Numbered from the stretch's first letter, positions 10,635-60,112 are shown. The stretch is 64,000 bases of DNA from Patescibacteria group bacterium (GCA_943356485.1 CALRFD010000003.1:7702-71701), one strand, 5' to 3'. Notes: generated by a model not told the origin, from the sequence alone. Numbers and translations are program-made.

Positions 10635-10779
10635 ACTTTAAGAATATCACATAATATGTAAGTGTTCTTTCAGGGTTTTGCGTAAGTCAAAATCGGTGGT
10701 AAACTCCACGACCAGCCTTTGGCTGGATGAGCCGGTGTAACTCCGGCAGCGACCGTATAGTCGGGATGAAAGGAAGAAT

Positions 10780-26729: not shown

Positions 26730-26804
26730 TTTTAACCTTAATGAAAGCCGCTAAAGCGTATTGAGAGATTGATTTATATTCAATAAATCTGGTACGTTAA
26801 ATAT

Positions 26805-29800: not shown

Positions 29801-30167
29801 CCTCTCTGATTTTAAGCAGCCAGAAGTTAGGCAAATCTGGCATTACTTAATAAATAGAGATACGACAAATGGAGCAGACAGGATGCTATCGGGTAATCCT
29901 CAGATAGAAACAGATGTAAGGCGAGTATATGATGTCATAAGAGTGGCTAATAGACTTAGGGAGATGTATACCGCTTACCAAGTTGGTGATTCAAATGAAC
30001 CAATGGATTTTCCAACATCCTTGCGGGAAGTAACTGATATTGTTATGGAAATGAACCACCGCCAGGGTGTCAAACCAATGATTAAAAGGGTTATTGTTCC
30101 AAAGATAGATGATAGAAGGCAGAAAAAATTAGTTGAGCAAACCATAGATGCAGTTCTACCGGCTTAG
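26805..30167 (+). CDS. Giant MoxR-like AAA+ ATPase (AAA_5-type) with a roughly 800-aa N-terminal beta-rich plus coiled-coil extension
   Basis: Walker A GEAGTGKN, Walker B IILFDEIN, sensor-1 LGTMNPQN, MoxR-like LSPEVKSRARVV. Residues about 100-330 are beta-strand-like repeats and about 360-800 are heptad-rich. Confidence 0.7.
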   Translation: MADNSGVERNTYEARNLLAPGNPISQLVEIRDLGTDRFREQFKGEVVDVKKIGEVVAILEKQSDKYELAVFNKQATPIRVPLDPTVVEILASSRGDYIDVSSKPDVSTEKLQNILGRMGFHLRDFNPVVETWSELFFNCRSIGFPDLYVRSRVLNRGANISIPMGDWNLEVMEDQNKQATFVLGVGGSYFEMYPNGPFKKLPLSGEEFAKLEELDKDLPGDLQIVKGYNLFHITNNTGLQQGYSGLSPTQDPSNPGILYFINSGQVYSLDTKGVLDRTTYPVSESQIKIQDPQELAIDPNGNFLIIRSSDNKLSIVDKETGDIAEVVEDVKGFLTVDKLGGIVYLDTQDKLREVQANFQTIPPGGSKLLLEKKEAQLREQQERFANLELGKVTGKSRAAISEVDVANTLRETISRQVLEPINSATNPVVLEDILDRLQGLKVDPANQAYQEVIDEFITQARGKLSGIRTAEFSTQLDSYKLALDEVKSVGDTIGLDEQFARILELRQKLDVVDPQQRREVEQRLRTLQTRKDTLNNQYQGELIAAVNEAIPQIEQLIEETGSPQELAYFSTSVQAQQFEMMLANIRDPQVRKELRDKYSAMRTKQRGKLEEGNRQLEEQDRQRWAQVVDEAREDLASLREQIEQLSDSGEVDRFGRNPLVTAWRAKLFALPPELREIEEKRLEIILGARKKDMEHRKELGAVGETGELKFGNATFPIFKEPPRIWQPKLLPRPGGFAQWADLIFEDSQGKIWRPAKDHDLIVSTDLNDERTRILIEQYHKQADEYFRGIKRRVPEFDEHWRITDYNMEKLEEVVEALNLQLANHRGILIMQGEAGTGKNVLVDMLANLSDREVITVACNENSTKEDLTYDFDYDPKTGTVRWPSRLLEGLQTPGTIILFDEINALKPGISKMLNSLFDYRRRLLFTSGGTAKEIITDPTVLFLGTMNPQNYGGVNRLSPEVKSRARVVDIDYPPFEVARNGRTYYRSDEAEMLAAYMDGLSDFKQPEVRQIWHYLINRDTTNGADRMLSGNPQIETDVRRVYDVIRVANRLREMYTAYQVGDSNEPMDFPTSLREVTDIVMEMNHRQGVKPMIKRVIVPKIDDRRQKKLVEQTIDAVLPA

Positions 30168-41192: not shown

Positions 41193-41858
41193 ATGCCAGG
41201 GAGATTACTACCCTTAGTTACGAATGAAATATACCATATCTACAATAGGGGGATTAACCGGCAACCGACTTTTACAAATAAAAGAGAATGTGATAGGGCT
41301 ATTGAGACTATAAAATTTTATAGATTTGCTGATTTACCCTTAAGATTATCCAAATTTCTTTTACTTGAACAGAAGAAACAAAAGGAAACCGCTGAAAGTT
41401 TAGCTAAATCACTAGTAGAGATTCTTGCTTTTTGTTTGATGCCAAATCATTTTCATTTTTTGCTTCGGCAACAAGAAGACGGCGGTATTGCCACATTTAT
41501 AGGTAAGTTTCTAAATAGCTACACTCGATATTTTAATACTGTAAATAAGAGGGATGGTTCTCTATTCCTTGACCAGTTTAAAGCTGTTAGGGTGGAAACT
41601 GATGAACAACTGGTTCATGTTTCAAGGTATATCCATTTAAATCCATACACAGGTTATGTTATTAAGACTCTTGATGAGCTTCAATTATATCGATATTCTT
41701 CATTTAAGGATTACATTGATAATGATGAAACATTTGTTACAACAGACTTGATTCTAGGACTTTTTAAGGATAAAAATTTGTATAAGCAATTTGTTCTCGA
41801 TCAGGCAGATTATCAAAGAAGATTAAAGGACATTGAGCATCTTGCACTAGAGGCATGA
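41193..41858 (+). CDS. RayT-like HUH tyrosine transposase, paralog 2
   Basis: YHIYNRG, HUH motif MPNHFHFLL, VSRYIHLNPYTGY. 221 aa. Confidence 0.8.
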   Translation: MPGRLLPLVTNEIYHIYNRGINRQPTFTNKRECDRAIETIKFYRFADLPLRLSKFLLLEQKKQKETAESLAKSLVEILAFCLMPNHFHFLLRQQEDGGIATFIGKFLNSYTRYFNTVNKRDGSLFLDQFKAVRVETDEQLVHVSRYIHLNPYTGYVIKTLDELQLYRYSSFKDYIDNDETFVTTDLILGLFKDKNLYKQFVLDQADYQRRLKDIEHLALEA

Positions 41859-45949: not shown

Positions 45950-46936
45950 TTAGCTTACAACCTTAAAAATTGCAGTGTAGCGCTTGGTTATTTCGATTAA
46001 TTCATTCAATGTTTTTGTTTGCATCATCTTCTCCCTGATCTCAAGTGCGTTTGGAAAATTATTTATGTAGCACTTAACAAACTTTTTCATTAAAGCAAAA
46101 TGTCTTTTATCACCAAAAGTTTTTTTAAATAGAGTCAGGTGCTTTAGAAGCAGTTTAATTTTATCTTTCGGTGTAATAGTTTCCGGATTAACGCTTTCAT
46201 TAAATAACCAGACATTTTGAAAAATTCCTCTACCTATCATAACTCCATCAATTCCATACTTCTGAGCCTTGACTCTTGACTCTTCGATTGACTTTACATC
46301 CCCGTTTCCTATTATTAAACAATCAGGGTTTAGTCTGTTTCTTACCTCAACGACTTTTGCTATTTCTTCCCAGTGGGCCGGAGGCTTTGACATCTCGGCA
46401 ACAGTCCGAAGGTGCAAAGTTAGCGCGGCAATAGGGGTTTGTAAAAGTGTAGTTACCCAGCCTTCGGTATCTATTGATCCAAAACCAATCCTGGTTTTGA
46501 CACTGACTGGTAGACCACAAGCTCCTTTAATTGTAGCTAGAATAATCTTTTGAGCTAATTTAGGGTTTTTAATTAAAGCAGAACAGCCGCCTTGCCTGAG
46601 CGTTGTTTTGACCGGACAGCCCATATTGATATCGATCCCATCAAAGCCTAAATCAGCCACCACTTTGGCGGCTTTTTTAAAGTGCTCAGGGTTACTGCCC
46701 CAAATTTGGGCTACAATTGGTCTTTCTCTTTGGCTAAATCTTAAGCCTTTATCGATAATTTTTTGACTTGATTTTGAGAGTATGGCATCGATTGGTACAA
46801 ATTCAGTAAAAAATACATCCGGCTTACCTACAGATGTGACGATCTGTCGAAACACCATATCTGTCACCCCATCCATCGGGGCTAAAATCATTATTGGTTT
46901 ACCAGTCTTTGGTTGAAATTTTTTCCAGAAATTCAT
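45950..46936 (-). CDS. dus: tRNA-dihydrouridine synthase
   Basis: ILAPMDGVTDMVFRQ. TIM-barrel FMN-binding pattern. Confidence 0.85.
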   Translation of the reverse strand: MNFWKKFQPKTGKPIMILAPMDGVTDMVFRQIVTSVGKPDVFFTEFVPIDAILSKSSQKIIDKGLRFSQRERPIVAQIWGSNPEHFKKAAKVVADLGFDGIDINMGCPVKTTLRQGGCSALIKNPKLAQKIILATIKGACGLPVSVKTRIGFGSIDTEGWVTTLLQTPIAALTLHLRTVAEMSKPPAHWEEIAKVVEVRNRLNPDCLIIGNGDVKSIEESRVKAQKYGIDGVMIGRGIFQNVWLFNESVNPETITPKDKIKLLLKHLTLFKKTFGDKRHFALMKKFVKCYINNFPNALEIREKMMQTKTLNELIEITKRYTAIFKVVS

Positions 46937-46967
46937 AAAGCTTAAGTATACTTCTTCAGCAGGTTTA

Positions 46968-48200
46968 CTAAAAGTTATCGATTACTTTGTTTCTTGGATT
47001 ATATCTGGCTAGTCTTGCTGATTTAATATTTTGAATCATCTGATCCACATATTTTTCCTTGTAGTCATGTAAAAGTAAAGCCGGCTCTAGCGAATAAGCA
47101 ACCTGAGCATTTTTTTGTCCAGTAAGAAGCATCATCATGTCTGAGCGGAATTTAGCAATTCCTCTTTCAGGAACCCTACAAAATTCAGCAACATTAGTTG
47201 GGATTTTCTCTAAAAAATTGCTCGGAAGTACATTTGATAACTTGTCTGCCAGAAGGTTTGTTAAGTATGAATAACTCATTATTTCCTGATCTATCCCATC
47301 TGCAAATTCCCACCTTGAACGTAAATCTTCTAAACTACGTTCGTTAAGACCATCCCGAGTAAGTAATTCGTTCACCAATTTTGTTTTTTCCGGGCGTTCC
47401 TTTTTACTAAACTCTGGATCTTGTGCCAATGCAGCATGTGTTACCAGATTCAGCCAGGATAGGTAACCTAGGTACTGTAGATATTGATGCTTACTTTCTA
47501 TCTGAGATGCAATACCAACAAACTGGGCTAATCTTTCCTGTGGGATACCTTTAGAATGGGCAAACTCGTGGGCGATTGCTTCCGGATATTTATCTGTTGT
47601 AAACACTACTTCCTGAAAAAATGGATTAAAAAAACCGATTGCATGAGTTCTCCATAACATTAGCCTGGGAATAAAGGAACGTTGAACCCGGTTCGTAGAA
47701 TCAATTTTTACTCCTTCATGTTTAAGAGTAAAATCGTCTACGGCCTGCTTTGCTAAAGGTGTCGTATCCTGAAAACTTAAGGCTTTTATCATCCTTCTTT
47801 TATTTAACTGATCCACCAGAAAATCTATTTCCGCTCCAGCGTTAAATCTAGCTGGTTGAACCCCCATCTTTTTATCAATACCTGTCCTAAAAAAGTTTCC
47901 CAGGACGCTTGTAAATAAAAAAGCTGCGCTTAAACCCATCTTGGCTGAGACAGACAGAATATCTTCTGGACTTGCTAATTGAGTACCGCCATTCATAAAT
48001 TGTTCCCCAATTGTATATAAGGAATTGATAGTATTTATGGCAATAATTTCTTCAAAATAAACCATTATTGGAGATAATAAATTAGAGGCTCCTGGTACAG
48101 TGTCTGTTATTGCTGATACAGTCCTGGCAAAGTGCGGGTAAACGTATTCGTAATTAAGATCTGCGAGCTTTGTGACTCCTTTTCTAATCTCTTCTTTCAT
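46968..48200 (-). CDS. Putative Zn-metallopeptidase (HExxH: AIAHEFAHSKG), DUF3810-like
   Basis: HExxH motif only. Confidence 0.45.
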   Translation of the reverse strand: MKEEIRKGVTKLADLNYEYVYPHFARTVSAITDTVPGASNLLSPIMVYFEEIIAINTINSLYTIGEQFMNGGTQLASPEDILSVSAKMGLSAAFLFTSVLGNFFRTGIDKKMGVQPARFNAGAEIDFLVDQLNKRRMIKALSFQDTTPLAKQAVDDFTLKHEGVKIDSTNRVQRSFIPRLMLWRTHAIGFFNPFFQEVVFTTDKYPEAIAHEFAHSKGIPQERLAQFVGIASQIESKHQYLQYLGYLSWLNLVTHAALAQDPEFSKKERPEKTKLVNELLTRDGLNERSLEDLRSRWEFADGIDQEIMSYSYLTNLLADKLSNVLPSNFLEKIPTNVAEFCRVPERGIAKFRSDMMMLLTGQKNAQVAYSLEPALLLHDYKEKYVDQMIQNIKSARLARYNPRNKVIDNF

Positions 48201-48296
48201 AGCAGTAGATTATAACAGAGAAAGGAAAATTATCAACCCATAGTATCAAACTAGATACCTAGCCTAACTTAACCCGGTGCTAGTATAATATTACAT

Positions 48297-48593
48297 ATGG
48301 CTGCTAAATATCTGCAACTCTTTCACCAAATGCTTAAAGAAAACGAGAAAGAATTATCAGAGTTTAAACTTCTTCACGATAAATATGAGTCTGACCCAAA
48401 GGCCTTTCAGGATGAATATAATAGAGAGGGAGAGAAATTCCTGGAAATAATACAGAAATACGAGAACATGCTTACCTCACATACAGAAAACGCCGGTTTT
48501 GGTAAATATGCCGCTAATCTATCTGATAAATTCCGCTTGGCTGTAAAACAGCTTTTTCCAAAGCTGGATTTTATTGGAATACAAAGAATGTAG
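48297..48593 (+). CDS. Hypothetical protein
   Basis: 98-aa ORF. Confidence 0.3.
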   Translation: MAAKYLQLFHQMLKENEKELSEFKLLHDKYESDPKAFQDEYNREGEKFLEIIQKYENMLTSHTENAGFGKYAANLSDKFRLAVKQLFPKLDFIGIQRM

Positions 48594-48595
48594 AA

Positions 48596-49144
48596 CTAAA
48601 GGGATCTTAAATATTTGTTGACCTGTGTTAGGGTATCCGGATCAGTTGCAGGGTGGGTTAGCACAACCACGCTTTGCAAGGAGCGTAGCCATCTTATTTT
48701 CCCTGCTCTTTTTGAAAAAGGCTTTTTGTAAACCATAAGTATTCCTGCTTCATCCTCTGAGGCTGGAATTGCGGATATTAACTTATGCGACTGCGGTAAT
48801 TCTCCTGTATTCCTAACTTCGGGTGAATAGACGCCAAACTTTACAATATTCTCCATGGCTTCTACAAAGGTTACAACAGGTGTAGATGACCAGTGATGGG
48901 TAAGAGCTAAGAAAAAAGGTCTCCTGGTACCAATCAATAAGATTTCTGAATCAGGCTCAGATGCCTGTTTTATTAGACCTGAGACGGCCTCATTTGCCGG
49001 AATCTTAAACCTCAAACTTGCAGACATATAATCCCTAAGCCGGGTTTCAACCTCTGATTGAGTATTGTCATCCTCCAAAAAATTTATTATCTGAGGGTGG
49101 ATCCCAACAGATGTTAATTCGAATTCTGTTTTTAAGCCATTCAT
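48596..49144 (-). CDS. Hypothetical protein
   Basis: 182-aa ORF. Confidence 0.3.
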   Translation of the reverse strand: MNGLKTEFELTSVGIHPQIINFLEDDNTQSEVETRLRDYMSASLRFKIPANEAVSGLIKQASEPDSEILLIGTRRPFFLALTHHWSSTPVVTFVEAMENIVKFGVYSPEVRNTGELPQSHKLISAIPASEDEAGILMVYKKPFSKRAGKIRWLRSLQSVVVLTHPATDPDTLTQVNKYLRSL

Positions 49145-49241
49145 ATAGTAAGCTATTATAGGCCTAATTCCTTAAAAAAACAAGCATACTTATCAGACTC
49201 TTGTTTTAGGACTTTGTTTATGAAATAGTGATATAAAGCCT

Positions 49242-50219
49242 ATGGAAATTCTGGGGAAAATATTTAAAAAAGATGCAAAGACCTTTATTTCCGATTTTAC
49301 CCAGCATCTTATATATTCCCTTTTTATAGTGGCTCTGGCATCTTTTTTTACATTCTTTCTATTAAAAAAAGTGTTTAATCAAACTATCAATGATATTAGG
49401 CTAGATAATACGATCAGTGTGGTGAATAGTAAGAAAATAACCGGGATGCCTGTTTCTGATGGGGATTTATATACAGAAAGAGGCAGCCCATATGATAATC
49501 GAACAGTAGATGGGGCGACTGAAAGCGCCAAAGTTATTTTTCATGGCTCCAGGGATAAAAAGAAAATCGCGATCACTTTTGATGCCGAAATGACAGATGG
49601 TATGAAAGCCGCACTTTTATCGGGTAAAACCAAAAGCTCATATGATAAAAGGGTGACTGATATTTTAATTAAAACAAAAACTAAGGCAACCTTGTTTTTA
49701 ACCGGAATGTGGATTGAGCTGTATCCAAAAGACACGAAAGAGTTAGGAGCCAATCCGCTTTTTGAGCTAGGAAGCCATTCTTTTACAGACAGCTCTTATC
49801 ATGGTTTTTGCTACGGCTTAAAGCAGATTCCGCACACCCTGGCAATTGAAGAAATCGGCGCAACAGAAAAGCTTCTTCGGGAGCATGGTGGGATTGATAA
49901 CCGCTTATTCAGGTTTCCGGGGGGTTGCTACACTCCGGAGGATGTAAGGCTAGTTAATGAGGCGAACGATACGGTAGTACATTGGGATGTGGTTGGGGCT
50001 GATGGCTTTAATGAAAATGTATCGCAAATTGTCAGAAATGTTGTTGACAATACACAAAACGGCTCAATCATTGTTTTGCACATGAACGGAGCACCAACCG
50101 CTCCAAAAACAGCTGATGCTTTGCCCGAGATAATTTCTAAACTTAAGGCTAAGGGGTTTGAATTTGTTAAAGTATCAGAATTGCTAAATTTACCTCCAGA
50201 GCCGGCAGGGGGAAATTAA
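49242..50219 (+). CDS. Polysaccharide deacetylase (CE4/NodB homology) with N-terminal TM
   Basis: TFDAEMTDG ... ATLFLTGMW ... LGSHSFTDSS motifs. Confidence 0.7.
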   Translation: MEILGKIFKKDAKTFISDFTQHLIYSLFIVALASFFTFFLLKKVFNQTINDIRLDNTISVVNSKKITGMPVSDGDLYTERGSPYDNRTVDGATESAKVIFHGSRDKKKIAITFDAEMTDGMKAALLSGKTKSSYDKRVTDILIKTKTKATLFLTGMWIELYPKDTKELGANPLFELGSHSFTDSSYHGFCYGLKQIPHTLAIEEIGATEKLLREHGGIDNRLFRFPGGCYTPEDVRLVNEANDTVVHWDVVGADGFNENVSQIVRNVVDNTQNGSIIVLHMNGAPTAPKTADALPEIISKLKAKGFEFVKVSELLNLPPEPAGGN

Positions 50220-50430
50220 TAGTTCATTTTTTCTTCTCAAATGCTTCCATTTTCTTAAGAATTTGTAATATAAGCTGCTGTTGATTTTCCAGATGAAGCA
50301 AAATTGTCTCGATTTCTTTTTCTGCTTTGGTGTCAGTTTCAAAGTCATGCTGGGCTCTTAGTTCTGCATGTTTTGCCTGGATATTTTGACCTACCATAAT
50401 TAAAGGCATGAGATGAATTTGGATCAGGTT

Positions 50431-50688
50431 TCAAATAAATAGCCAGAGTACAAACGCAGGGAAAGGGTCAAAACGTAAATTAACAGGAGCAAACATATTC
50501 CAAAGCAACCAGGAAAAAGTCCATCCGGCAATAATAAAGAAAAATCCCATAGTACCTATCTTATTGGTTACCTGCAGAGCTAATTTATCCATCCCGGAAA
50601 GCTTTGACCGATGAATTTTATTAGTATCCTGCGGAGGGGTAAAGTTTTTCTTAAGGCTTTCCAGAGACTGCATGTTTAAATCCGGCAT
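50431..50688 (-). CDS. Small membrane hypothetical protein
   Basis: 85-aa ORF with a TM segment. Confidence 0.25.
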   Translation of the reverse strand: MPDLNMQSLESLKKNFTPPQDTNKIHRSKLSGMDKLALQVTNKIGTMGFFFIIAGWTFSWLLWNMFAPVNLRFDPFPAFVLWLFI

Positions 50689-50808
50689 TTTTTAAGTATA
50701 TCAAAAATGTTTGAGGTTTAATACGCCATATTATAACCAGATATGGTATAATTACCCACAAAATTACGGAAATGACCTTCCGTTTTTTAGAAAGTGTAAA
50801 AAAATATA

Positions 50809-51459
50809 ATGAAAGAAAAAGATCTAGTTTGTATTGAGTTTTCCTTAGGTATAAATATTCGTGGAAAAATTCCTTATCCATTTTTTAATTTCGAAATGAG
50901 AGGTGATACAAAATGTGAGGCAGTGGAGCGGTTTTCTCTTATTGATAACCGACTAAGAATGACTGAGGTTTTGGGATTAACCCCTGCCAGAACAGACCTG
51001 CTTAATCTTTATTTTATGTCAGGAGTCGCAAGGAGGGGTCCTTCAAAATTCGTTGCTTACTTGCAAAATCCTTTATTAATGTCAATGGCAGACAAGCCTA
51101 TTATTGGCCGGCTAATTTCTGGGATGCAAAATGTTCTGGATGATTATCATGATCTGTCGGTTGATTTAGAAGAAACAGCAGACCGCTGGGGATTACTAAT
51201 GCAGGAGAGTAGCGATATGAATTATAGAACCTTCATAGAAAAAGCCATGGAGGAAGAGGAGGATGAGGACTTTAAGGATTTGCTGGACGAAAAATTACTA
51301 GACGGTGAGCAACCAGAAATATTATCTACACCAGTCGGAGACCCAAGAGGCATTAAGAATATTGCACACTTGCTCTCGTCTATTTATTTAGATCCATATG
51401 CTACAGAGCAGGATATAGCCAATGTTTTAAGAAGTACAGCAATTAGATTTTTAAAGTAA
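50809..51459 (+). CDS. Hypothetical protein
   Basis: 216-aa ORF. Confidence 0.3.
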   Translation: MKEKDLVCIEFSLGINIRGKIPYPFFNFEMRGDTKCEAVERFSLIDNRLRMTEVLGLTPARTDLLNLYFMSGVARRGPSKFVAYLQNPLLMSMADKPIIGRLISGMQNVLDDYHDLSVDLEETADRWGLLMQESSDMNYRTFIEKAMEEEEDEDFKDLLDEKLLDGEQPEILSTPVGDPRGIKNIAHLLSSIYLDPYATEQDIANVLRSTAIRFLK

Positions 51460-51525
51460 GCCTCATTATTAGTGGTCGCAAATCCAAAGGGTATAAAAGA
51501 CATCATTGATTAGTGTGAGAATTTT

Positions 51526-52431
51526 TTATCCGGAAATAGAAGAAACATATTCCATTGGATCAAATAATTGTCTTAGATGGGTTGGTGGATTCTTTATCAA
51601 CAATGGTAATGCTAGAGAGACATAGAGTCCTGAACCGATCAGGTAATCCATAACTATATCTACAAAATTAGGACCCCAATTAATAGGTGTACGGGAGTAA
51701 GATAATACTCCAGAGTTTTTATGTCCTTCCTCCAATAGTCTTTGCTTTTTACTCATATTATTTTCATTTAAGACTTGCTGATAAAGTCTAAGTGAATTAA
51801 TAGCAAATTGCTCAAGTCCTATTAGATAGCTTTTGTAGCTATTTAACAGATAGGGGGCATTAGGTATTCCCTGAGCAAATTTTACCCTTCTTTGTATATC
51901 AGGGTCTTGGCCTCTTGACCTGTAAGATCTATCTATCACTTCAGATTTTCCCCACTCTGCAATTCCTTCATCAAATATACGCACAGTCATGTACTCTTCA
52001 ATTAACGTTAAGGCGCAGTGGCTATCAGCTGCTTGCTCAGCATAAAAAAGCTCACTAAAAGCCTGAGCTGCTTTTACTAGCCCGGGATTAGTTTGATACG
52101 TAAAAGCATGAATGTTTTCGTGTATTTCAGCCGCTTCTGAATGGAAATCATGAAGGTTGACAAGGTAGATATTATCCTCGGGAAAATACCGTCCACCTAC
52201 TTCTAATTGTCCCCTAAGTAAATCACTGTTCGACCTAGCAAGTTGCGTGTCAGGGAAGAAAAGAGTCATAAGCAATCGGTTAGGCAAGTTTAGCTCAATT
52301 TTAACAGGAGGTTGTGAAAATTTAATTCCTAATGTGTCTTCCACCATTTTTGCAACAGTATTGGGAGAAGTCGTGATTAATTTTAATGCAGCTTTTTGCC
52401 CAAATGTTTTTCCATCAAAAAACTTTTCCAT
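51526..52431 (-). CDS. Hypothetical protein with an HExxH-like HENIH segment
   Basis: Motif only. Confidence 0.3.
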   Translation of the reverse strand: MEKFFDGKTFGQKAALKLITTSPNTVAKMVEDTLGIKFSQPPVKIELNLPNRLLMTLFFPDTQLARSNSDLLRGQLEVGGRYFPEDNIYLVNLHDFHSEAAEIHENIHAFTYQTNPGLVKAAQAFSELFYAEQAADSHCALTLIEEYMTVRIFDEGIAEWGKSEVIDRSYRSRGQDPDIQRRVKFAQGIPNAPYLLNSYKSYLIGLEQFAINSLRLYQQVLNENNMSKKQRLLEEGHKNSGVLSYSRTPINWGPNFVDIVMDYLIGSGLYVSLALPLLIKNPPTHLRQLFDPMEYVSSISG

Positions 52432-52529
52432 AGTGATATTATACTAAAAAGATATCCTATAGTCAAATCAACTTCGCCTTAAGCCTTCTATTTACTTTAA
52501 GTGAGTAAAGTGATTTAATGTAGAAAGTT

Positions 52530-52943
52530 ATGTCAGTAGACAATCCTCAATTTGAAGGCCATACCGAAGAATATGCTCATACTCCGGAAGGTCAAGTACA
52601 GGCTAGCATTAGTCCTCCAACTTATTTCCAGGAATTAAAAAATTCTCTTACTGAAATCACGGCGGCTTTTGTAACCCCTCCTCCTTCCAGTTTAAGAGGA
52701 TTTGCTGCTTATATGGTACGTGATATCCCTTCAATAGCCTTAACTGCCGGTATGATAATCGGAGAAATTCCGGTTTTTGATTTAATTAACAGAACTCTTG
52801 ATTTAACTAATCCTGCAATAGTTAATTTTGAATATCTATCAATTCCTCTTTCTGTTTTTCCAATAGGTGTGCTAGCTGATAGATTAACCAGGAGATTAAG
52901 ACAGAGAATTGATTACTTGATCAATCCAAATCAACAAAAATAG
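52530..52943 (+). CDS. Hypothetical protein
   Basis: 137-aa ORF. Confidence 0.3.
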   Translation: MSVDNPQFEGHTEEYAHTPEGQVQASISPPTYFQELKNSLTEITAAFVTPPPSSLRGFAAYMVRDIPSIALTAGMIIGEIPVFDLINRTLDLTNPAIVNFEYLSIPLSVFPIGVLADRLTRRLRQRIDYLINPNQQK

Positions 52944-52960
52944 TATTTTCTTGAATACAT

Positions 52961-53572
52961 ATGCTATTATTAAGTAGGTATATGGCTAATAGTGAGTTAG
53001 GACAGCTATCTGGTATAAGAGAACTTACTTTAAACGACGTCACCGATTTACAAGTGGTTGCAGAAATATTAAATGACCCTGTAAATGCCATTCATTTTAC
53101 TGAAAGCGCTAAAGGGATTGAGGATTTACAACAATTAGTACAAAACCCTAATTACCATTTATTGGGAGCATATAATCTAGACCGAGAGATAGTTGGAACA
53201 CTCTCTGTGGTTGATGAATCTAGAGACGTCAATACTTATCTAATAGAAAAGACAGCTATACGCTCTGATATCCAAAATAGAGGTTTAGGTCGGGAGATGA
53301 TTGAAAAGGGAATTAAGTGGGCATTTGAGACTCCAACTAACCAAGAAAGAATGCGAAAAATATTAGTTCTATGGGTGCAAGAGGATTTGCCGGGATGGGA
53401 GAGAATGCAGGCTATAGTCTATCAAACTGGATTTTTGCAAGTGGTTAGAGAGCCTGATTTAGTAGTCAAGACAATTGATGGAATAGAAGTGGAAAAGCCC
53501 TCCGCGCGTTACCACCTTAGGCGTGAGCGATACGAAGAATTATCTATAAAAGGAAAATATAGAACTATTTAG
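52961..53572 (+). CDS. GNAT-family N-acetyltransferase
   Basis: Motif A QNRGLGREMI. Confidence 0.55.
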   Translation: MLLLSRYMANSELGQLSGIRELTLNDVTDLQVVAEILNDPVNAIHFTESAKGIEDLQQLVQNPNYHLLGAYNLDREIVGTLSVVDESRDVNTYLIEKTAIRSDIQNRGLGREMIEKGIKWAFETPTNQERMRKILVLWVQEDLPGWERMQAIVYQTGFLQVVREPDLVVKTIDGIEVEKPSARYHLRRERYEELSIKGKYRTI

Positions 53573-53625
53573 CCAGAGCTGGTTAAAATTACTAATTCTC
53601 TTTCCATTAAAAGCAATTCTGGCGA

Positions 53626-54837
53626 TCAACTTTTAGATATAGGTAAAGCGATAATCTGTCTTGCTCCAACTGTATCTGTCCTGTTTTGTAAGAAAACTGC
53701 TCCGCCGTAGCCTTCTTCGATATATCTTTGATGGGCACTCATACCTCTCCCTGTTCCAGAAACTATCTGATTGCTACTATCTTTAAAACCAGAATGTCCC
53801 CTTTGGTACCCATTTTTTAGATGATCATCATCAAATCCAATTGCATTATCTTCAACAATAATTAATAAATATTTTCGACCTGGATTGAGCACTTGCTTTT
53901 GATCCTCAGGAATAATTTGATCATCATCTTCTAATTTAGTAAACCTGACTGTAACCTGATTAGATTCACCGGTTTGGAGACTATACCCCTTTTTTAAAGC
54001 GAAAGCCTTTAGCGCGTTTGAGGCTAGGTTTTTAATAAGGGGCTTTAAGATAAATCTGGCATAATCTATGTCTAGATTGTTTAAATAATCATCCAATTCT
54101 TCTACCTCAAGCACTATACCTTGTTTTTCCAAATCACGCCTTAAATTTGCTTTAAATGCAGCGGCCAGGTACTCTGTCGAAACCTCTTCTTTAAAGAACT
54201 TCTCCCTTAAAATAAGGGGTGTTGTTTCATTAAGGTAAATATTTAGGGAATCCATAGATTCCCTAAGAAGATGAATGTTTTCTGCATCTGTTTCAGGAGT
54301 TGTAGTGCCGTTTTGACTGTCAGATTTCATAAAATCTATATTTGCCAATCCAACTAATGGATTTCCCAAATCATGGTGCACCATATTAGTTAACTTATCT
54401 ATGGCTAGATATAAATCATCAGGATCTTTTATTGTTAACTCAAGAGGAATAAGTCCTAAGGCTTTAAACTTCTTATTAATCGATCTCGCCTGAGCAGTTT
54501 GATGGATAGAGGCAATAGCTTCTCTCCTTTTTAAGTCTGCAACTGACCCTGTGGGTGGAATCTTTGTTTCAAATAACCCCATCTGATCGTAAATTAGTCT
54601 GAATTCATCCATCTCTGGTTCAAGTTGAAGATAGTCGTTCGTAGAACCGGAAATTGCCAGTGTACTAAAGCCTTTTTCAGCTATTGTTGTTCGATAGATA
54701 TTAAGAGCTTCCAGCATCGAATTAATATTCTCTGCAATGGGTTTTTGTTCCTTTGACAAGGCAATCTCTATGTTAAGATAAAGATATGGCCTGTCAATTA
54801 TTATTTCTGATTCAGGAACCAAGTCTGAACTAACCAT
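53626..54837 (-). CDS. Cytoplasmic sensor histidine kinase
   Basis: H-box VHHDLGNPL. HATPase G1/G2 regions VEDNAIGFDD and GTGRGMS. No TM segments. Confidence 0.7.
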   Translation of the reverse strand: MVSSDLVPESEIIIDRPYLYLNIEIALSKEQKPIAENINSMLEALNIYRTTIAEKGFSTLAISGSTNDYLQLEPEMDEFRLIYDQMGLFETKIPPTGSVADLKRREAIASIHQTAQARSINKKFKALGLIPLELTIKDPDDLYLAIDKLTNMVHHDLGNPLVGLANIDFMKSDSQNGTTTPETDAENIHLLRESMDSLNIYLNETTPLILREKFFKEEVSTEYLAAAFKANLRRDLEKQGIVLEVEELDDYLNNLDIDYARFILKPLIKNLASNALKAFALKKGYSLQTGESNQVTVRFTKLEDDDQIIPEDQKQVLNPGRKYLLIIVEDNAIGFDDDHLKNGYQRGHSGFKDSSNQIVSGTGRGMSAHQRYIEEGYGGAVFLQNRTDTVGARQIIALPISKS

Positions 54838-55246
54838 TTTGTTTAAGTATAGCCTTTATTTTAGCTTCGAGCCCTTTCATATCAGGTTTCATTACATAAC
54901 TATTTGCACCCTGATCAATATAGTGTATGCTACCTGAAGAATTACGGTTAGCCGTAAAAACTATGACAGGAGTTTTCTTAAAAGGAGAATCCTCACGCCT
55001 CATCCGTTCTAATAAGGACTCTACAAACCCATCCGGAAATTCAGTATCCAGAATAACTACTTTTGGTGGCAGTATTGGTTGCGAAAAAAGCATTTCCTTT
55101 GCTTCATTTAGCTTTTTGGCAACTCCTATTTGACCGGGTGTTATTCCTCCAAGTCCTAGGATAACGGCTCTTATCGCCATTGAGCTAAGCCTATTATTAT
55201 CAACTATCAACACTTTTAAGTCTTCCCTACGTTCCGGCATTGTCAT
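54830..55246 (-). CDS. Single-domain response regulator (REC only)
   Basis: LIVDNNR ... DTEFPDG (phospho-acceptor Asp context) ... K near the C-terminus. Overlaps the kinase gene. Confidence 0.75.
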   Translation of the reverse strand: MTMPERREDLKVLIVDNNRLSSMAIRAVILGLGGITPGQIGVAKKLNEAKEMLFSQPILPPKVVILDTEFPDGFVESLLERMRREDSPFKKTPVIVFTANRNSSGSIHYIDQGANSYVMKPDMKGLEAKIKAILKQNG

Positions 55247-55428
55247 AGAAATTTGTTTATTTAATCTTACAGGGAAAACCTAGTCAATTGCTAGTCTCTG
55301 ATCAATATCTCTATATGGTTCCAGATTATTCATCCAGATATATAATATGCTGAATTAAAAAGATGTCAAACTATATGGTCTAATGGGTGGGCAGATGAGT
55401 TTTCCAGGTGTTGTGCTAGAATATAAAA

Positions 55429-55767
55429 GTGATAATTACAAAATCTGAGCCTTTTACCCCAGATGAAATTGAAAAACTCAAAGAGGTGTTTGATGTTTAT
55501 ATTAAAACTGTAATTGATGTTCAAAAAAGGATCTGTACTGCGGGAATGGATAGACATTTTGAGGGGGAGAAAATCTTGCTAGAACAGGGTTCGAAGCAGT
55601 CAAGCATTTGGGGTGGGGGAGTAGATTTAGAAACAAAATCTGTAGATTTTAACTCTTTTATCAATATCCGGCCAAATGACAATAATACCAGCAACGAAAT
55701 TCAGGATGCTGAGATAAGAAAAGTCTACGAGGAGATAACCAGATTTTTCTTTAAGGAGGTCCTGTGA
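55429..55767 (+). CDS. Hypothetical protein (112 aa), first gene of a coupled pair
   Basis: GTG start. The stop overlaps the next ORF's start (ATGA). Confidence 0.35.
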   Translation: MIITKSEPFTPDEIEKLKEVFDVYIKTVIDVQKRICTAGMDRHFEGEKILLEQGSKQSSIWGGGVDLETKSVDFNSFINIRPNDNNTSNEIQDAEIRKVYEEITRFFFKEVL

Positions 55768-56033
55768 GCCAAAAAATCATCATTGAGTCATTGGCAATGG
55801 ATCTAAAAAGGGTGGCGTTGGGTTTACACAGAGGATCATTGGCAGTGGCAGAGAGGTTTAAGGAGGAGGCGGTCAAAAGGTCACAGGAGCTTGAAAAAAA
55901 TGATAGTCAGTATCTAACTAACCTGGTGGATAAAATGAGGGAGTGTTTAGCTCTGAATAGTGATAGATCTGCAGAAGATGCGTTAATGTATAGTATTTTA
56001 TTCCAAAACTACAGTTTGAAAAAGTATAAATAA
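55764..56033 (+). CDS. Hypothetical protein (89 aa), second gene of a coupled pair
   Basis: ORF only. Confidence 0.35.
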   Translation: MSQKIIIESLAMDLKRVALGLHRGSLAVAERFKEEAVKRSQELEKNDSQYLTNLVDKMRECLALNSDRSAEDALMYSILFQNYSLKKYK

Positions 56034-56091
56034 GGGGTGGGTGGGCAGATTATAATCCTGAGCAGGGCCTAAGGACTTAGTTTGTACTCAG
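56034..56091 (+). repeat. Dispersed repeat, copy R2 (GGGGTGGGTGGGCAGATTATAATCCTGAGCAGGGCCTAAGGACTTAGTTTGTACTCAG)
   Basis: Near-identical to 57663-57720 and 58477-58535. Confidence 0.8.
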
Positions 56092-56145
56092 TTGCAGGAA
56101 TTTAAACCCTTATTTATTATTCCTAACTATGCTACATTCTAGACT

Positions 56146-56781
56146 ATGAAAACATATGCCTTTATTGACGCTTCTAATCTCTTTTATGGTGGTGAGAAGA
56201 GTTTAGGGTGGAAAATAGACTATTCCAAACTAATTAAATATCTTAAAGAAAAATATGAAGTATCAGAGGTATATTATTTTGGTGGTGTTGAAACTCATGG
56301 ATATAAATATGATTATTTAAAAAATGAAACAGTTCCACTTAAGGAACTAAAAACTAGGTTAGATAAGTATATTGAAGAGCAGGGTAAAAGCTTAGATGAG
56401 GCAAAATTAATTCTATTTTCTAGGCACCTACAAAGAATAAAATTCTATCTTAAGCTACAGGAATTTGGATATAAACTCTACCTCAAACCTGTAAAGCTAT
56501 ATTATCAGCCAGATGGGAGTACTGAAAGAAAAGCAAATTGTGATGTTGAAATGGCTTTTTATTTGATGAAAGAAAAGGATAGTTTTGAGAGGGTTGTTGT
56601 TATGTCTGGGGATGGAGATTTTTTGCCCTTGCTAAAGTACCTCAGGGAAACTGGTAAAGATGTAATCGTCTTAGCGAGGAGTCCTCGCACTGCTAGAGAA
56701 ATAAGGCAGTTTGCTGGAAGCGACTTTAAAGACTTTGAATATTTAAGGGAAATACTAAAAATGAAAGAGGAAAAGACATAA
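56146..56781 (+). CDS. NYN/LabA-like (PIN-fold) ribonuclease-domain protein
   Basis: AFIDASNLFYG ... VVVMSGDGDFLPLLKYL acidic-residue pattern of NYN domains. Confidence 0.6.
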   Translation: MKTYAFIDASNLFYGGEKSLGWKIDYSKLIKYLKEKYEVSEVYYFGGVETHGYKYDYLKNETVPLKELKTRLDKYIEEQGKSLDEAKLILFSRHLQRIKFYLKLQEFGYKLYLKPVKLYYQPDGSTERKANCDVEMAFYLMKEKDSFERVVVMSGDGDFLPLLKYLRETGKDVIVLARSPRTAREIRQFAGSDFKDFEYLREILKMKEEKT

Positions 56782-56805
56782 AAAACGGGAAGACTCATAT
56801 AGAAT

Positions 56806-56920
56806 CTCCCCGATGTTTAGTAAAAGTATTATACCACACTTGTATCAAAAACTCATCTCTAAATCAGAATACGTAATTTTGCGTGGGTGGGTGGCAGACC
56901 TCCTTTGTACCCAAATGAGA
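56806..56920 (+). repeat. Dispersed repeat, copy R3 (extended 5' arm; internal deletion of the TATAATCCTGAGCAGGGCCGAAGG segment)
   Basis: CCCCGATG...GTATTATACCACACTTGTATCAAAAACTCATCTCTAAATCAGAATACGTAATTTTGCGTGGGTGGGTGG matches 58398-58487. Confidence 0.8.
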
Positions 56921-56946
56921 GAAATAATAGTAAAGTTTCTTTAATA

Positions 56947-57615
56947 TTAGTAGAGTCTTTTTAATAAAGCTAATGGGTCAATAGAATTGTTTATATCAGT
57001 ACCTAATCTGTGAAAATCGGGTTGATAATGTATTTCAAAATGAACATGGTTATAACTTCTTTCATAAGTTTCTTCAACTTTTGGTGGAATTTCTACACTT
57101 GGATGTAGTCCTCCAGCTTCACCCTTAAAGAATAATCCAACTTGTCCAATTCTTTCCCCTCTTTGGAACCTCTCTTCTGAGTATCTGTCGAACCAATGCC
57201 TTTGGGCTATTGTAGGATGTAAACTATCTAAGTCTAGATGTACTAGCCAATATGCTAACCCAGATTCTTGAGAATAAAGTAAAACATCAGCTAAGCCTCG
57301 GTGTCTGTTGATATAGGTTTGTGCATCTTTATAAACAAAGGTAGCAGTTTCTGGTGTTGCAACGCAGGTCCCTTCAGGAACTTGAATATCTAGGGCAAAA
57401 TGTGGGTCTTTATCCTTTGAAGCAGAATAATTTGGTTGTCCAAAAAAGCAAGAAATATGAGCCCGAAGACTTGTCATATCAACTGGCCAATCGAGAGTAT
57501 GTCTTAGTGGAGTTAAAGCTTCTGGTAAGGTTCGCTTACTTACGTGCTCTAAATAGAAGGCTTCGTCGGTAGGAAAACCCTCACCGCTTTTACGAATTGG
57601 TTGTAATTCAGACAT
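56947..57615 (-). CDS. M23-family (LytM-like) metallopeptidase-domain protein without signal peptide
   Basis: HFALDIQVPEGTCVATPETATFVY (HxxxD block), AYWLVHLD, GERIGQVG, HVHFEIH (HxH). The N-terminus is not hydrophobic. Confidence 0.6.
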   Translation of the reverse strand: MSELQPIRKSGEGFPTDEAFYLEHVSKRTLPEALTPLRHTLDWPVDMTSLRAHISCFFGQPNYSASKDKDPHFALDIQVPEGTCVATPETATFVYKDAQTYINRHRGLADVLLYSQESGLAYWLVHLDLDSLHPTIAQRHWFDRYSEERFQRGERIGQVGLFFKGEAGGLHPSVEIPPKVEETYERSYNHVHFEIHYQPDFHRLGTDINNSIDPLALLKRLY

Positions 57616-57662
57616 TTAAATATCTTAACACTTTTATGCCTGAATATCAAACTATAGGACTG

Positions 57663-57720
57663 GGGGTGGGTGGGCTGATTATAATCCTGAGCAGGGCCGA
57701 AGGACTTAGTTTGTACTCAG
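57663..57720 (+). repeat. Dispersed repeat, copy R4
   Basis: GGGGGTGGGTGGGCTGATTATAATCCTGAGCAGGGCCGAAGGACTTAGTTTGTACTCAG. Confidence 0.8.
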
Positions 57721-57766
57721 ATAAGCTCAAATTCTATAAATATTTCTTCTATGCTATAGTCTAGTT

Positions 57767-58339
57767 ATGATAATCTTCATTGATGAATCCGGTACGCATA
57801 AACAAATGGATCATGCAACTATAGCCCTAGTTTATATAGAAATAGCTAATTTAGAGGAATTTGAGGAGGCAGTAGAGCAAATTGAAGAGAAACTTAATAT
57901 TAAATACTTTCATTGGACAGATGAAAAATGGGATAAAAGGGAAAAATTTATTGAACAAATTTTGAAGCTGGATTTTTTTGTTAAAGTGGCCATACTAAAT
58001 AATCCAGTTAAACTTGCTGAAAGCCTAGAAGACGCATTAAGACATCTTGTAGTTGAAGAGAATATAAAGAAAATTATGCTTGATGGTAGAAAACCAAGAT
58101 GGTATAACCAAAGGCTGAAAAAAGTATTAAGAGATAAGGGTGTATCCGTTAAAAAGATTGTAACTGTCAGAAAAGATGAATCTAGTCCTGGGATAAGAGT
58201 ATCTGATTGTTTAGCGGGGTTAATTAGAAATAATTATGATAACCCTGATTCACTAGCCTCTAAGTGGTATGACAAGATGAAAAAAGCAGAGAAGATTAGA
58301 CTTGAGATTACTACTTACCCACAAAAAAGCCCCGCTTAA
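57767..58339 (+). CDS. DUF3800-like protein (IFIDESG N-terminal motif)
   Basis: N-terminal MIIFIDESGTH resembles the DUF3800 signature. The assignment is tentative. Confidence 0.35.
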   Translation: MIIFIDESGTHKQMDHATIALVYIEIANLEEFEEAVEQIEEKLNIKYFHWTDEKWDKREKFIEQILKLDFFVKVAILNNPVKLAESLEDALRHLVVEENIKKIMLDGRKPRWYNQRLKKVLRDKGVSVKKIVTVRKDESSPGIRVSDCLAGLIRNNYDNPDSLASKWYDKMKKAEKIRLEITTYPQKSPA

Positions 58340-58397
58340 AGCGAGGCCAGTTATTCAAGTAGTTTATTGCTAAACTCGGCGGCTCACCGTCCTTTGT

Positions 58398-58535
58398 CCC
58401 CGATAACTTGTTGTAAATGTATTATACCACAACTTGTATCAAAAACTCATCTCTAAATCAGAATACGTAATTTTGCGTGGGTGGGTGGGCAGATTATAAT
58501 CCTGAGCAGGGCCGAAGGACTTAGTTTGTACCCAG
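58398..58535 (+). repeat. Dispersed repeat, copy R5 (full length, about 138 bp)
   Basis: Combines the 5' arm shared with R3 and the core shared with R2 and R4. Confidence 0.8.
58473..58500 (+). promoter_or_regulatory. Sigma70-like promoter inside repeat R5: TTGCGT, 16-nt spacer, TATAAT
   Basis: Read directly. It faces rightward into the 3' end of the minus-strand gene 58545-59075, so it could make an antisense or small RNA. Confidence 0.3.
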
Positions 58536-58544
58536 ATAAAATTA

Positions 58545-59075
58545 TCAAAACACTTTGTATACTAACAAATCTTCATGAGATCTTCTCACAACTAATAATT
58601 CATTACTCTGAGGCCTAAAACTAACATGGAAATGCATATTTCCAACTTTTGGCCTTATAGTATCCACTGTAATAGTGTCAACTTGCTTCATACCTAATTT
58701 TCTTTGAAAATCTCTAACAATCCATATTTTAGAAGTGCTAGATGAACCTTCTACAACAATGAATTGTCCACCTGCTAATTCTTTCAAGTGTTCAAAATCA
58801 TATTCGTATAAATCTTGGGTTGGAAGAGCATGAAGAAAACCAAAATTAGCCTGAGACTCATCTCTTAATATAAATCCTGAACAAGCAGCAAAATTGGGAC
58901 TTACAAATCTGTTAGCTCGAAGGCCCATTTTATAGGTACCTTGTCTAATATGGATTACATCTAAAGCACCAGGTAAGTACTCAGATATGTCAGGGTACGC
59001 AGAACGATTGTCATCGTCGTATGGCATAAATCTAATTAATTCGCTCATTAAAAGATTATATCTATTTTGAAGCAA
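58545..59075 (-). CDS. Hypothetical protein (176 aa)
   Basis: ORF with no recognised motifs. Confidence 0.35.
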   Translation of the reverse strand: MLQNRYNLLMSELIRFMPYDDDNRSAYPDISEYLPGALDVIHIRQGTYKMGLRANRFVSPNFAACSGFILRDESQANFGFLHALPTQDLYEYDFEHLKELAGGQFIVVEGSSSTSKIWIVRDFQRKLGMKQVDTITVDTIRPKVGNMHFHVSFRPQSNELLVVRRSHEDLLVYKVF

Positions 59076-59130
59076 AATTACAAACTACAGGTATAAGAAA
59101 TGAGATATTTTAGAGTAAATATGTATACTA

Positions 59131-59207
59131 TGGGGTGGCTGACGGGGATCGAACCCGCGACGTCCAGTTCCACAAACTGGCGCTCTACCGCTGAGCTACA
59201 GCCACCA
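59131..59207 (-). tRNA. tRNA-His (anticodon GTG) with encoded G-1 and CCA
   Basis: Reverse complement reads G-GTGGCTG TA GCTC AGCGGTA GAGC G CCAGT TTGTGGA ACTGG ... GGTTCGATCCC ... CAGCCAC C CCA. Anticodon loop TTGTGGA. Confidence 0.85.
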
Positions 59208-59290
59208 TGTAATCCCAAACCTGATTTTATCACAGACAAATTTTAAAAACCATCTGAAGCCAGCACAAAAAAATACTCTACACTTTTTTG

Positions 59291-60112
59291 TTATGAAATT
59301 GGCTTGACTATTGGTCCGCTCAAATACGAATAAGCTCTTAGTACTAAGCTTCTGTCAATTTGCGGTCCGGGAAGCAGAGAAAATCTTTCTCGATGTTGAT
59401 GCGGATTACTTGCTAAATTGAGGATTTCAGATAGCAGAGTAGGAAGTTTTAACCCAACATAGAAACCACCTAGCATGTTTGTAAGGTATCCCTCCACATT
59501 CATCAGAAAAGCAGAAGAACAGATAAATGATACTGCTAAACCATAGACTGTCAGGTTTGCCATCCAATCTCCCCGATCCAAGCCCTTAACCAAAAAATTA
59601 GATCCTAAGTTATTTATTCCATCTTTAATAGTTTGGTTAAGATAATATGACCAGGCCTTGCTGGATCTAATATCTCCCTGAAAACGGTTATCATCTCTGA
59701 TTCTTTGAGTAATCTCTGCGTTATTGATGGTTATAAGGCCAGCTGACCATCTTCTGTCATGGGTAAGGAAGTCATCGCCTTCAGATAATCTGTAATTGTG
59801 CGTTGGGACAAGCGTCTTTGCCGCCTTAAAGGATGCAGAAGCACTGCCCTGACTATCTACCCCGGTAATTTCTGGAACTAAACTGGTGGTTTCTAAACTA
59901 TTGCTTCCTGTCACAATCAGGGGATATATGCCGGCCAAATGTGTCAGACGGTGAATTAGAGCCATATTAACTCCAATCTGATCGGTGTTTACCCATCCTG
60001 GTAGATTGGGATATATTTTTATCTCCTCAGTTTTAGCCTCAGATATCGGTACAAAATTTTCTTTAGATCCAAACATGCAAGCAATTATACTCTTAAAGAA
60101 AAAAGGAGTCAA
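59291..60112 (-). CDS. Hypothetical protein (273 aa)
   Basis: ORF with no recognised motifs. Confidence 0.3.
   Translation of the reverse strand: MTPFFFKSIIACMFGSKENFVPISEAKTEEIKIYPNLPGWVNTDQIGVNMALIHRLTHLAGIYPLIVTGSNSLETTSLVPEITGVDSQGSASASFKAAKTLVPTHNYRLSEGDDFLTHDRRWSAGLITINNAEITQRIRDDNRFQGDIRSSKAWSYYLNQTIKDGINNLGSNFLVKGLDRGDWMANLTVYGLAVSFICSSAFLMNVEGYLTNMLGGFYVGLKLPTLLSEILNLASNPHQHRERFSLLPGPQIDRSLVLRAYSYLSGPIVKPIS

Follow-up and report, generated by a model that had tools for sequence, protein, structure and literature searches.

Co-oriented repeats as possible boundary modules of a variable gene-cassette block beside tRNA-His in a Candidatus Daviesbacteria genome

Genomes of Dehalococcoides carry tandem islands delimited by direct repeats of the ssrA 3' end, and some of these islands lack integration genes (PMC3146451); the accretion of cis-mobilizable elements (CIME) and integrative and mobilizable elements (IME) is a further known precedent (PMC5704250). 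By comparison, the ssrA islands and CIME accretion appear to be the closest known analogues of the locus described here, a block of small genes separated by repeats at about 55.4-59.1 kb of a 64-kb stretch of DNA (CALRFD010000003.1, 7702-71701; hereafter the window) from an uncultivated member of Candidatus Daviesbacteria, in the candidate phyla radiation (CPR). Homologues of the 608-amino-acid (aa) protein encoded beside the block carry Candidatus Daviesbacteria names, and an 80.8-kb metagenome contig from ENA matches the window with 99.99% identity. As in the known systems, the array follows the 3' end of a small-RNA gene, here tRNA-His; its units are split by co-oriented copies resembling that end, with extra conserved sequence beside the repeat; its content is strongly strain-variable, and some units have no integration genes. 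Unlike them, the units are single genes of 0.6-0.9 kb and not islands of several kb, and the repeats are degenerate and composite, with two modules (X and Y), an optional insert of 27 nucleotides (nt) and an arm that carries a small-RNA promoter. In addition, there is no integrase in the 64 kb, half of the element is inverted in one relative (L019, below), and the host belongs to the CPR. We consider, with about even chances of being right, that the repeats are att-type boundary modules of a tRNA-His cassette array. Because no integrase is encoded in the window, a recombinase acting in trans, or homologous recombination in its place, is proposed.

Each repeat has a core, to which an arm is added in two copies (Table 1). 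The three long cores, of about 58 nt, are 96-98% identical (A and C, 96.6% over 58 nt by BLAST), and copy B lacks about 27 internal nt, TTATAATCCTGAGCAGGGCCGAAGG among them. The fragment upstream of the DUF5674 gene matches copies A and D at 13 of 13 bases. A repeat finder returned a family of 57-77 nt at 56035, 57664 and 58479, together with a 100% identical pair of 57 nt at 56838 and 58432. In the 64-kb window the 13-mer TGGGTGGGCAGAT, with at most one mismatch, had four matches for 0.03 expected, and a core 35-mer had three for 0.00 expected. All the copies are on the plus strand, intergenic and within 3.2 kb, and no further copy was detected in the window by repeat finding, pattern searches or BLAST. 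An initial annotation of this DNA had described a co-oriented repeat in the intergenic spaces, a fragment of it and an extended arm in two copies; the three long cores, copy B and the 13-nt fragment were all verified, and the arm was found in B and D only. The core can be divided into module X, its G-rich start (GGGTGGGTGG(G)CAGA), and module Y (..GAAGGACTTAGTTTGTACCCAGATAAA), and copies A and C have GAGTAC in place of GGGTAC. The block was also said to end near the tRNA-His 3' end, and the distance measured from the start of the last cassette open reading frame (ORF) was 55 nt; with the ATG at 59048 as the real start it would be 82 nt.

Table 1. Features of the block beside tRNA-His, with positions in the window.
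Feature	Position	Strand	Remarks
Repeat fragment	55384-55396	+	acceptor-like module X only (TGGGTGGGCAGAT); upstream of DUF5674 gene
Overlapping gene pair, DUF5674 (112 aa) and 89-aa partner	55429-56033	+	leftmost unit; Pfam PF18924, 1.2e-21
Core copy A, long form	56034-56091	+	directly 3' of the 89-aa ORF stop codon
NYN-domain nuclease gene	56146-56781	+	PF01936, 5e-21; PADLOC NYN, 5.9e-11
Terminator-like hairpin with T-run	56786-56812	-	11 pairs, 6 of them GC; directly abuts arm B
Arm B	56807-56882	-	promoter region of DUF3800-II RNA and start of the RNA gene (about 17 nt)
Core copy B, short form	56883-56916	+	GGGTGGGTGGCAGACCTCCTTTGTACCCAAAT; internally deleted
222-aa gene, weak M23-like hint	56947-57615	-	Pfam E 0.017 (below cut-off); PDB 0.82
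Core copy C, long form	57662-57721	+	upstream of DUF3800 gene; position kept in L007 and L003
DUF3800 gene, nuclease with RNase H2-like fold	57767-58339	+	PF12686, 1e-10
Intrinsic terminator of DUF3800-II RNA	58328-58348	-	overlaps DUF3800 stop codon
DUF3800-II small RNA gene (Rfam RF02961)	58345-58414	-	full length, 1-69
Arm D	58398-58476	-	first RNA bases, promoter region of DUF3800-II RNA and about 45 nt more
Core copy D, long form	58477-58537	+	between arm D and 3' end of last cassette gene
Last cassette gene, no family match	58545-59075	-	176 aa from TTG start
tRNA-His (GUG)	59131-59205	-	3' end toward the array; anchors the array
Five paired segments of the two units	56127-56142 with 57749-57764; 56897-56916 with 58518-58537; 57604-57658 with 59037-59091		other two pairs: copies A and C (96.6%) and the arms (97.4%)

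The block was compared with the contexts of homologues of DUF3800 and of the 608-aa protein, of which L007 is Daviesbacteria RIFCSPLOWO2_02_FULL_41_8. In all the Daviesbacteria relatives examined tRNA-His is kept beside the 608-aa gene, and in three genomes (window, L003 and L007) the array abuts the tRNA-His 3' end. The flanks of L007 are syntenic with those of the window, from the DUF5674 pair (3413-4019; 80% and 59% aa identity) to DUF3800, DUF3800-II RNA and tRNA-His, followed by the 608-aa gene, DNA polymerase IV and an epimerase. The cargo between these flanks differs and includes a GDSL lipase, HicAB and PemK, among others. L003 keeps DUF3800, the RNA and tRNA-His with different neighbours. 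The cargo between the repeats is wholly different among these three genomes, and different cargo was also seen across the window, L003, L007, L019 and L020, to all of which tRNA-His and the 608-aa gene are common.

The element itself was recovered in these relatives. At least four co-oriented, homologous short-form elements (..TGGGGTGAATGGCTGAACTCTCTTTGTACCCAAAT) lie between unrelated genes in L003. In L007 a single long-form copy (7884-7945), with about 80-87% identity to the cores of the window, immediately precedes DUF3800; a short-form copy occurs at 5881-5920, and directly 3' of a 90-aa ORF there is a sequence, TAGTGGGTGAT, that resembles a tRNA end. Window and L007 become homologous precisely at the first base of module X (57664 and 7886, respectively), and the stretch from copy A to the NYN ATG (56035-56142) matches the L007 region upstream of DUF3800 with 78% identity. 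The element is absent from six loci at which DUF3800 and its RNA lie away from tRNA-His (L004, L005, L011, L014, L016 and L017), so that it follows the tRNA-His island and not DUF3800. A general linkage of DUF3800 and its RNA to tRNA genes was rejected: in L011 a tRNA-Arg is 230 nt away with no direct repeat, and the five other loci have no nearby tRNA.

Outside these loci, the exact core pattern gave no matches in the GTDB representative genome contigs, and the neighbouring histidine kinase, used as query in the same contigs, found no relative either. The scan of metagenomes with the long form matched only one Daviesbacteria contig, which was already known, viral contigs were matched neither by the core patterns nor by the DUF3800 protein, and BLAST against phages and plasmids gave no match. 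The block is not a compositional island, its GC content (0.34-0.38) resembling that of its surroundings. The distance from tRNA-His to Dus is about 12 kb in the window (46936-59131), an interval that includes a response regulator/histidine kinase pair, an acetyltransferase and DUF3810, and in L020 the two lie within 180 nt (13208-13382). This difference indicates that the variable zone exceeds the repeat-punctuated block.

The match between the element and tRNA-His is constant in register, the first bases of the former corresponding to the last bases of the latter, and this match varies by genome (GGGGTGA in L003, GGGGTGG in the window and TGGGTGG in L007). In the tRNA orientation and without gaps, copy B equals the Daviesbacteria-type tRNA-His 3' end GGGTTCAAATCCCGTCAGCCACCC at 18 of 24 positions (3/2000 shuffles). 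The corresponding figures were 11-22/2000 for the L003 copies and 2/2000 for the L007 copy once its insert was removed. The closest locus available is L019, whose 608-aa protein is 76% identical. There, at the equivalent junction, a single gene separates tRNA-His from an unmistakable direct repeat of the tRNA 3' end, TGCGGTTCAAAATAACTTGCATCAGCCACCCCA, with TCAGCCACCCCA at 12/12 plus the T-loop (0/2000 shuffles), and the arm promoter, as in the window, comes after this direct repeat. In L020 a pseudo 3' half of a Daviesbacteria-type tRNA-His (GGTTGTGGGTTCAACTCCCCTCAGACACCCCA, 13228-13258) is found 14 nt after an atypical tRNA-His gene. Two smaller observations belong here. The L019 arm promoter (4650-4682) is followed by sequence that is not DUF3800-II RNA and then by the contig end. 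In L003 a degenerate remnant of the tRNA-His 5' half (ATTGAGCTACGACCACC, 17/17) is present at 4907-4916 and 4993-5009. It lies outside the intact tRNA-His gene, 135 nt away on the 5' side, and is a sign of past recombination in the gene.

If the repeats are att-type boundary modules, the block would belong to a hypervariable array of gene cassettes in this Daviesbacteria genome, of which it would be the part nearest to tRNA-His. Module X would be a degenerate and always co-oriented copy of the tRNA-His 3' end, a direct repeat of the type that results when incoming DNA recombines into a tRNA gene at its 3' end; module Y would travel with it, and the arm of 76-80 nt in B and D would belong to the DUF3800 cassette and be partly duplicated. 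Each cassette would be one probably leaderless gene with its own promoter. Cassettes would be inserted, duplicated and swapped by recombination at the boundary modules, for which a site-specific recombinase could be supplied in trans. The second option is homologous recombination, in which the modules of 58-138 nt would serve as portable homology after DNA uptake from relatives. Recombination at the modules would explain why near-identical modules flank unrelated ORFs. Turnover of cargo among relatives and exchange of the DUF3800 module were seen in the comparisons; the recombination route is what we infer.

Several observations weigh against this interpretation. The long forms, tested copy by copy against the tRNA-His end of their own genome, gave weak results, with exact identity of 7-11 nt. 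The elements of the window and L003 have in common a 4-nt insertion and a change of TTCAAAT to TACAAAG, and these shared derived changes argue for one element lineage and not for independent tRNA scars. The right, T-loop-like half of core D plus about 35 nt (58513-58573) is homologous to L019 4579-4640 (score 41, 0/1000), where this module Y homologue is inverted relative to tRNA-His and to the arm promoter; the core is thus not one colinear pseudo-tRNA piece, but two modules, X and Y. No match to PF00589, PF00239 or DDE families was obtained among the window ORFs of at least 140 aa, in agreement with the initial annotation, which saw no integrase, and tyrosine and serine recombinases are also absent within 8-10 kb in L003, L007 and L020. 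The called genes of L001, L003, L007 and L020 likewise matched none of these families. Furthermore, the NYN gene sits in a DUF3800-type frame, the same as that of the L007 DUF3800, with a truncated RNA gene, and the core is at least as similar to the 5' part of DUF3800-II RNA as to tRNA-His. The initial annotation had suggested degenerate att copies left by serial integration. The att part of that idea gained from the tRNA-end repeats in L019 and L020, the position of the array at tRNA-His in three genomes, the cargo turnover and the 18/24 match of copy B. Serial integration did not fare so well, given the missing integrase, the single element lineage, the inverted module Y in L019 and the parallel frames around unrelated ORFs.

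These frames form two units of about 1.6 kb each, 56034-57661 and 57662-59130, which are colinear in five segments (Table 1) and have unrelated ORFs. The RNA stump in the NYN cassette, together with the DUF3800-type frames, points to duplication of a frame with replacement of its payload rather than to independent insertions. In a rival explanation, the repeats would be no more than by-products of a local tandem duplication of a segment of about 1.6 kb in which the ORFs were replaced later, the repeats themselves being at most promoter or regulatory DNA. The duplicated unit would run core, promoter, plus-strand gene, terminator/RNA, arm, core, minus-strand gene, promoter. Besides the colinearity of the units, the shared frame of NYN and L007 DUF3800 and the remaining RNA-gene stump, the perfect TATAAT of the long-form core and the extended -10 promoters of the genes, 7-8 nt before their ATG, agree with this explanation. 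However, an event recent enough to leave frames 97% identical predicts ORFs that are also about 97% identical, yet they are unrelated, and two precise payload replacements would be needed. The elements elsewhere in L003 and L007, the fragment at 55384 and the tRNA-end repeats of L019 and L020 are left unexplained. Moreover, the TATAAT is accompanied by no conserved -35 or TG, and promoter-like sites numbered 12 for 13.5 expected, so that the core was rejected as a promoter. We consider duplication alone a rather doubtful account of the repeats. If they were scars and duplicated promoters only, the locus would be an ordinary tRNA-linked variable region.

Two other identities of the core were tried and discarded. 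A micro-ORF, MGGWADYNPE(Q/R).., spans 58477-58524 in the window and 7884-7946 in L007 and has a start only in copy D (GTG) and in L007 (ATG), copies A and C having no start codon; it is probably not coding. A G-quadruplex was rejected since the G-runs are not kept in L007.

The similarity of the core to an RNA is best considered together with the RNA itself. The sequence at 58345-58414 matched RF02961 with 54.4 bits against a gathering score of 43.2, and it lies beside a DUF3800 gene and has a terminator. It is a bona fide member of the DUF3800-II RNAs (Weinberg et al., 2017; PMC5737381), and the core is not. The RNA lies 6 nt past the stop codon of the DUF3800 gene (gene end 58339), on the opposite strand, an arrangement shared by all the relatives examined, and the minus-strand fold of 58320-58430 had a z-score of -2.2. 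Its promoter, an extended -10 (TGGTATAAT, 58429-58421), is 7 nt before RNA position 1 and within arm D. Arm B has the same extended -10 (TGGTATAAT, 56836-56828) and the start of the RNA gene (TCCCCGAT, 56807-56814), and the remainder of the RNA is missing. Between the arms, 56820-56894 and 58413-58488 are 97.4% identical, with 57 nt at 100%. The proximal part of arm D is kept in L003, L005, L007 and L019, and the same RNA, promoter and proximal arm lie beside DUF3800 in L003, L004, L005 and L007. Since the promoter of the RNA is inside arm D and is repeated in arm B, the arm belongs to the DUF3800/small-RNA module; it comprises the promoter and first bases of the RNA gene, and arm B is a truncated duplicate of it. 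The hairpin at 56786-56812 is predicted to end both a short arm-B transcript and the read-through from the M23-like gene. Two loci without the repeat have GC-rich regions that may be other structured RNAs: L005 370-518 (+), upstream of DUF3800, with a minimum free energy (MFE) of -62 kcal/mol (z-score -5.95), and a comparable inverted-repeat region of L004 with CCTGAGCCTGGCC.

The initial annotation had offered a family of small RNA or regulatory elements as the alternative for the repeat. This holds for the arm, which contains a small-RNA promoter whose RNA had been overlooked; for the core there is a likeness to the RNA at 19 of 24 positions, without a stable fold. The likeness was found on the same strand in copy B, where GGGTACAAAGGA-GGTCTGCCACC aligns with GGGGACAAAGGACGGTGAGCCGCC of the RNA 5' part (0-1/2000 shuffles), and the copies of L003 and L007 align with the RNA in the same register (p 0.01-0.08). 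The short forms resemble the 5' 25 nt of the RNA, and neither the P3 hairpin nor the 3' strand of P1 is present in the core. The core could then act as a minus-strand RNA, a partial paralogue of DUF3800-II RNA made up of P1, the ACAAAG junction and the P2 hairpin. Lying in the 3' untranslated regions of minus-strand genes, it may be a decoy, a processing site or an extra DUF3800 binding site, with ..CCACCCACCCA as the end of the putative processed minus-strand core RNA. In an equivalent form, the plus strand of the core may be a base-pairing target of DUF3800-II RNA. True tRNA fragments (L019 and L020) do not resemble the RNA, the M23-like and 167-aa genes run through core and arm before the first minus-strand terminator, and when P1 and P2 were placed on five short forms, 78% of cells were paired (55% or less in slid positions) and two of the pairs were compensatory. 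That structure was nevertheless derived from the same sequences, and its covariation was within the range of shuffles (49/500). In 55200-59300 the core had no match to RF02961 or to any other Rfam family up to an E of 10, and its folds were not significant on either strand (MFE z-scores from -1.0 to +1.4), so that the fold and covariance-model check proposed in the initial annotation came out negative and a stable structured RNA was rejected. The GAGTAC of copies A and C in place of GGGTAC and the absence of the element at the six DUF3800 and RNA loci away from tRNA-His also speak against an RNA role, which we regard as unlikely.

Regarding the module, conservation is far higher in DUF3800 and its RNA than in the flanking core genes. 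In L003 the DUF3800 protein is 86% identical to that of the window and the flanking 598/608-aa protein 48%; in L007 the values are 72% and 61%. At the nucleotide level, window and L007 are 89.8% identical over 58051-58431 and 66% in the 608-aa gene. This difference indicates horizontal exchange of the DUF3800/RNA module. DUF3800 has been described as RNase H-like (PMC7736814, PMC10910872) and no function has been given for the DUF3800 RNAs (PMC5737381); the protein was rejected as a classical recombinase, its fold being RNase H2-like. A bolder idea, to which we assign a very low probability, is that the boundary element is the recognition site of an integrase-free cassette capture, imitating the tRNA-His 3' end as well as the 5' domain of DUF3800-II RNA. 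The RNase H2/PIWI-like DUF3800, with its RNA, would recognise or nick it and so drive insertion, duplication and exchange of single-gene cassettes beside tRNA-His in CPR bacteria. If this were true, capture guided by DUF3800 would give a function to eleven orphan classes of DUF3800 RNA. As it stands, the locus links DUF3800-II RNA, an orphan since 2017, and its RNase H-like protein with a module that is mobile and exchanged horizontally. What deserves further attention is the three-way likeness among the core, the end of tRNA-His and DUF3800-II RNA. The CPR bacteria have tiny genomes and their mobile DNA is little known; a compact array in which single accessory or defence-type genes turn over between repeats at tRNA-His, with no recombinase encoded nearby, would reveal how these bacteria diversify.

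Other known arrangements were less similar. The units share with integron cassettes their small size, mostly of a single gene, between sites of 58-138 nt, their defence- or accessory-type cargo and the fact that the cassettes themselves encode no recombinase. Unlike in integrons, there is no IntI, attI or Pc, the genes have mixed orientations and a promoter each, and the sites, nearly identical to each other, have neither inverted repeat nor attC-like hairpin (the z-scores being those given above). The initial annotation had set aside both a classical integron and CRISPR, and rightly so: integrase and attC-like fold are missing and gene orientations are mixed, and the repeats are spaced by about 650-870 nt with protein-coding genes between them. 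In Acinetobacter plasmids, pdif modules are likewise small and have short recombination sites at their borders, namely 28-bp XerC/D sites in alternating orientation, and they are moved by a host recombinase encoded elsewhere. Here, no Xer-type site was identified at the locus.

The only transposase-related proteins of the window are two paralogues of about 220 aa, the products of 7863-8534 (+) and 41193-41858 (+), in which an IS200-like Y1 transposase domain was recognised (PF01797, about 6e-9). With such Y1_Tnp proteins at hand, and with near-identical intergenic copies flanking unrelated genes, the core might be a small non-autonomous element, similar to miniature inverted-repeat transposable elements (MITE) or repetitive extragenic palindromic (REP) sequences, inserted into successive intergenic spaces and mobilised in trans, for instance by a Y1 homologue. 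This is very improbable. The core differs from REP and MITE elements in being non-palindromic, without terminal inverted repeats or a stable hairpin; its copies are co-oriented and confined to one 3.2-kb block beside tRNA-His, with none elsewhere in the 64 kb or near the Y1 genes, which are at least 14 kb from the block; and the similarity between copies reaches past the core into promoters and arms.

With respect to the cargo, profile searches bore out two of the families named in the initial annotation, the NYN RNase (PF01936, 5e-21) and the DUF3800-like protein (PF12686, 1e-10). The coupled 112/89-aa pair also stands, its 112-aa member now being assigned to DUF5674 (1e-21), and the M23 peptidase was reduced to a hint below threshold. 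The NYN gene has an extended -10, TGCTACATT, at 56130-56138, 8 nt before its ATG, and that of the DUF3800 gene, TGCTATAGT, is 7 nt before the ATG. The 222-aa gene is preceded by TTGATA-17-TAAGAT, also 7 nt before the ATG. In the last cassette gene TTGTAA-17-TATAAT precedes the ATG at 59048, which is likely the real start and gives a protein of 167 aa. The promoter-to-ATG stretches are 56130-56148, 57752-57769, 57650-57613 (-) and 59083-59046 (-). In these four cassette genes an extended -10 or a -35/-10 promoter ends 7-8 nt before the ATG, with no Shine-Dalgarno sequence, and their mRNAs are probably leaderless. The M23-like and 167-aa proteins were rejected as paralogues, as they have no significant similarity except for MSEL and the promoter.

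Elsewhere in the window, an FMN riboswitch (10662-10781, +) is located directly upstream of a gene for an EamA-family transporter (10780-11700). Finally, 24729-30167 (+) encodes a 666-aa VWA-domain protein and, after it, a 1120-aa protein that has an ATPase domain of the AAA_5 (dynein-related/MoxR-type) family, a pairing that is frequent in accessory or defence-type systems.

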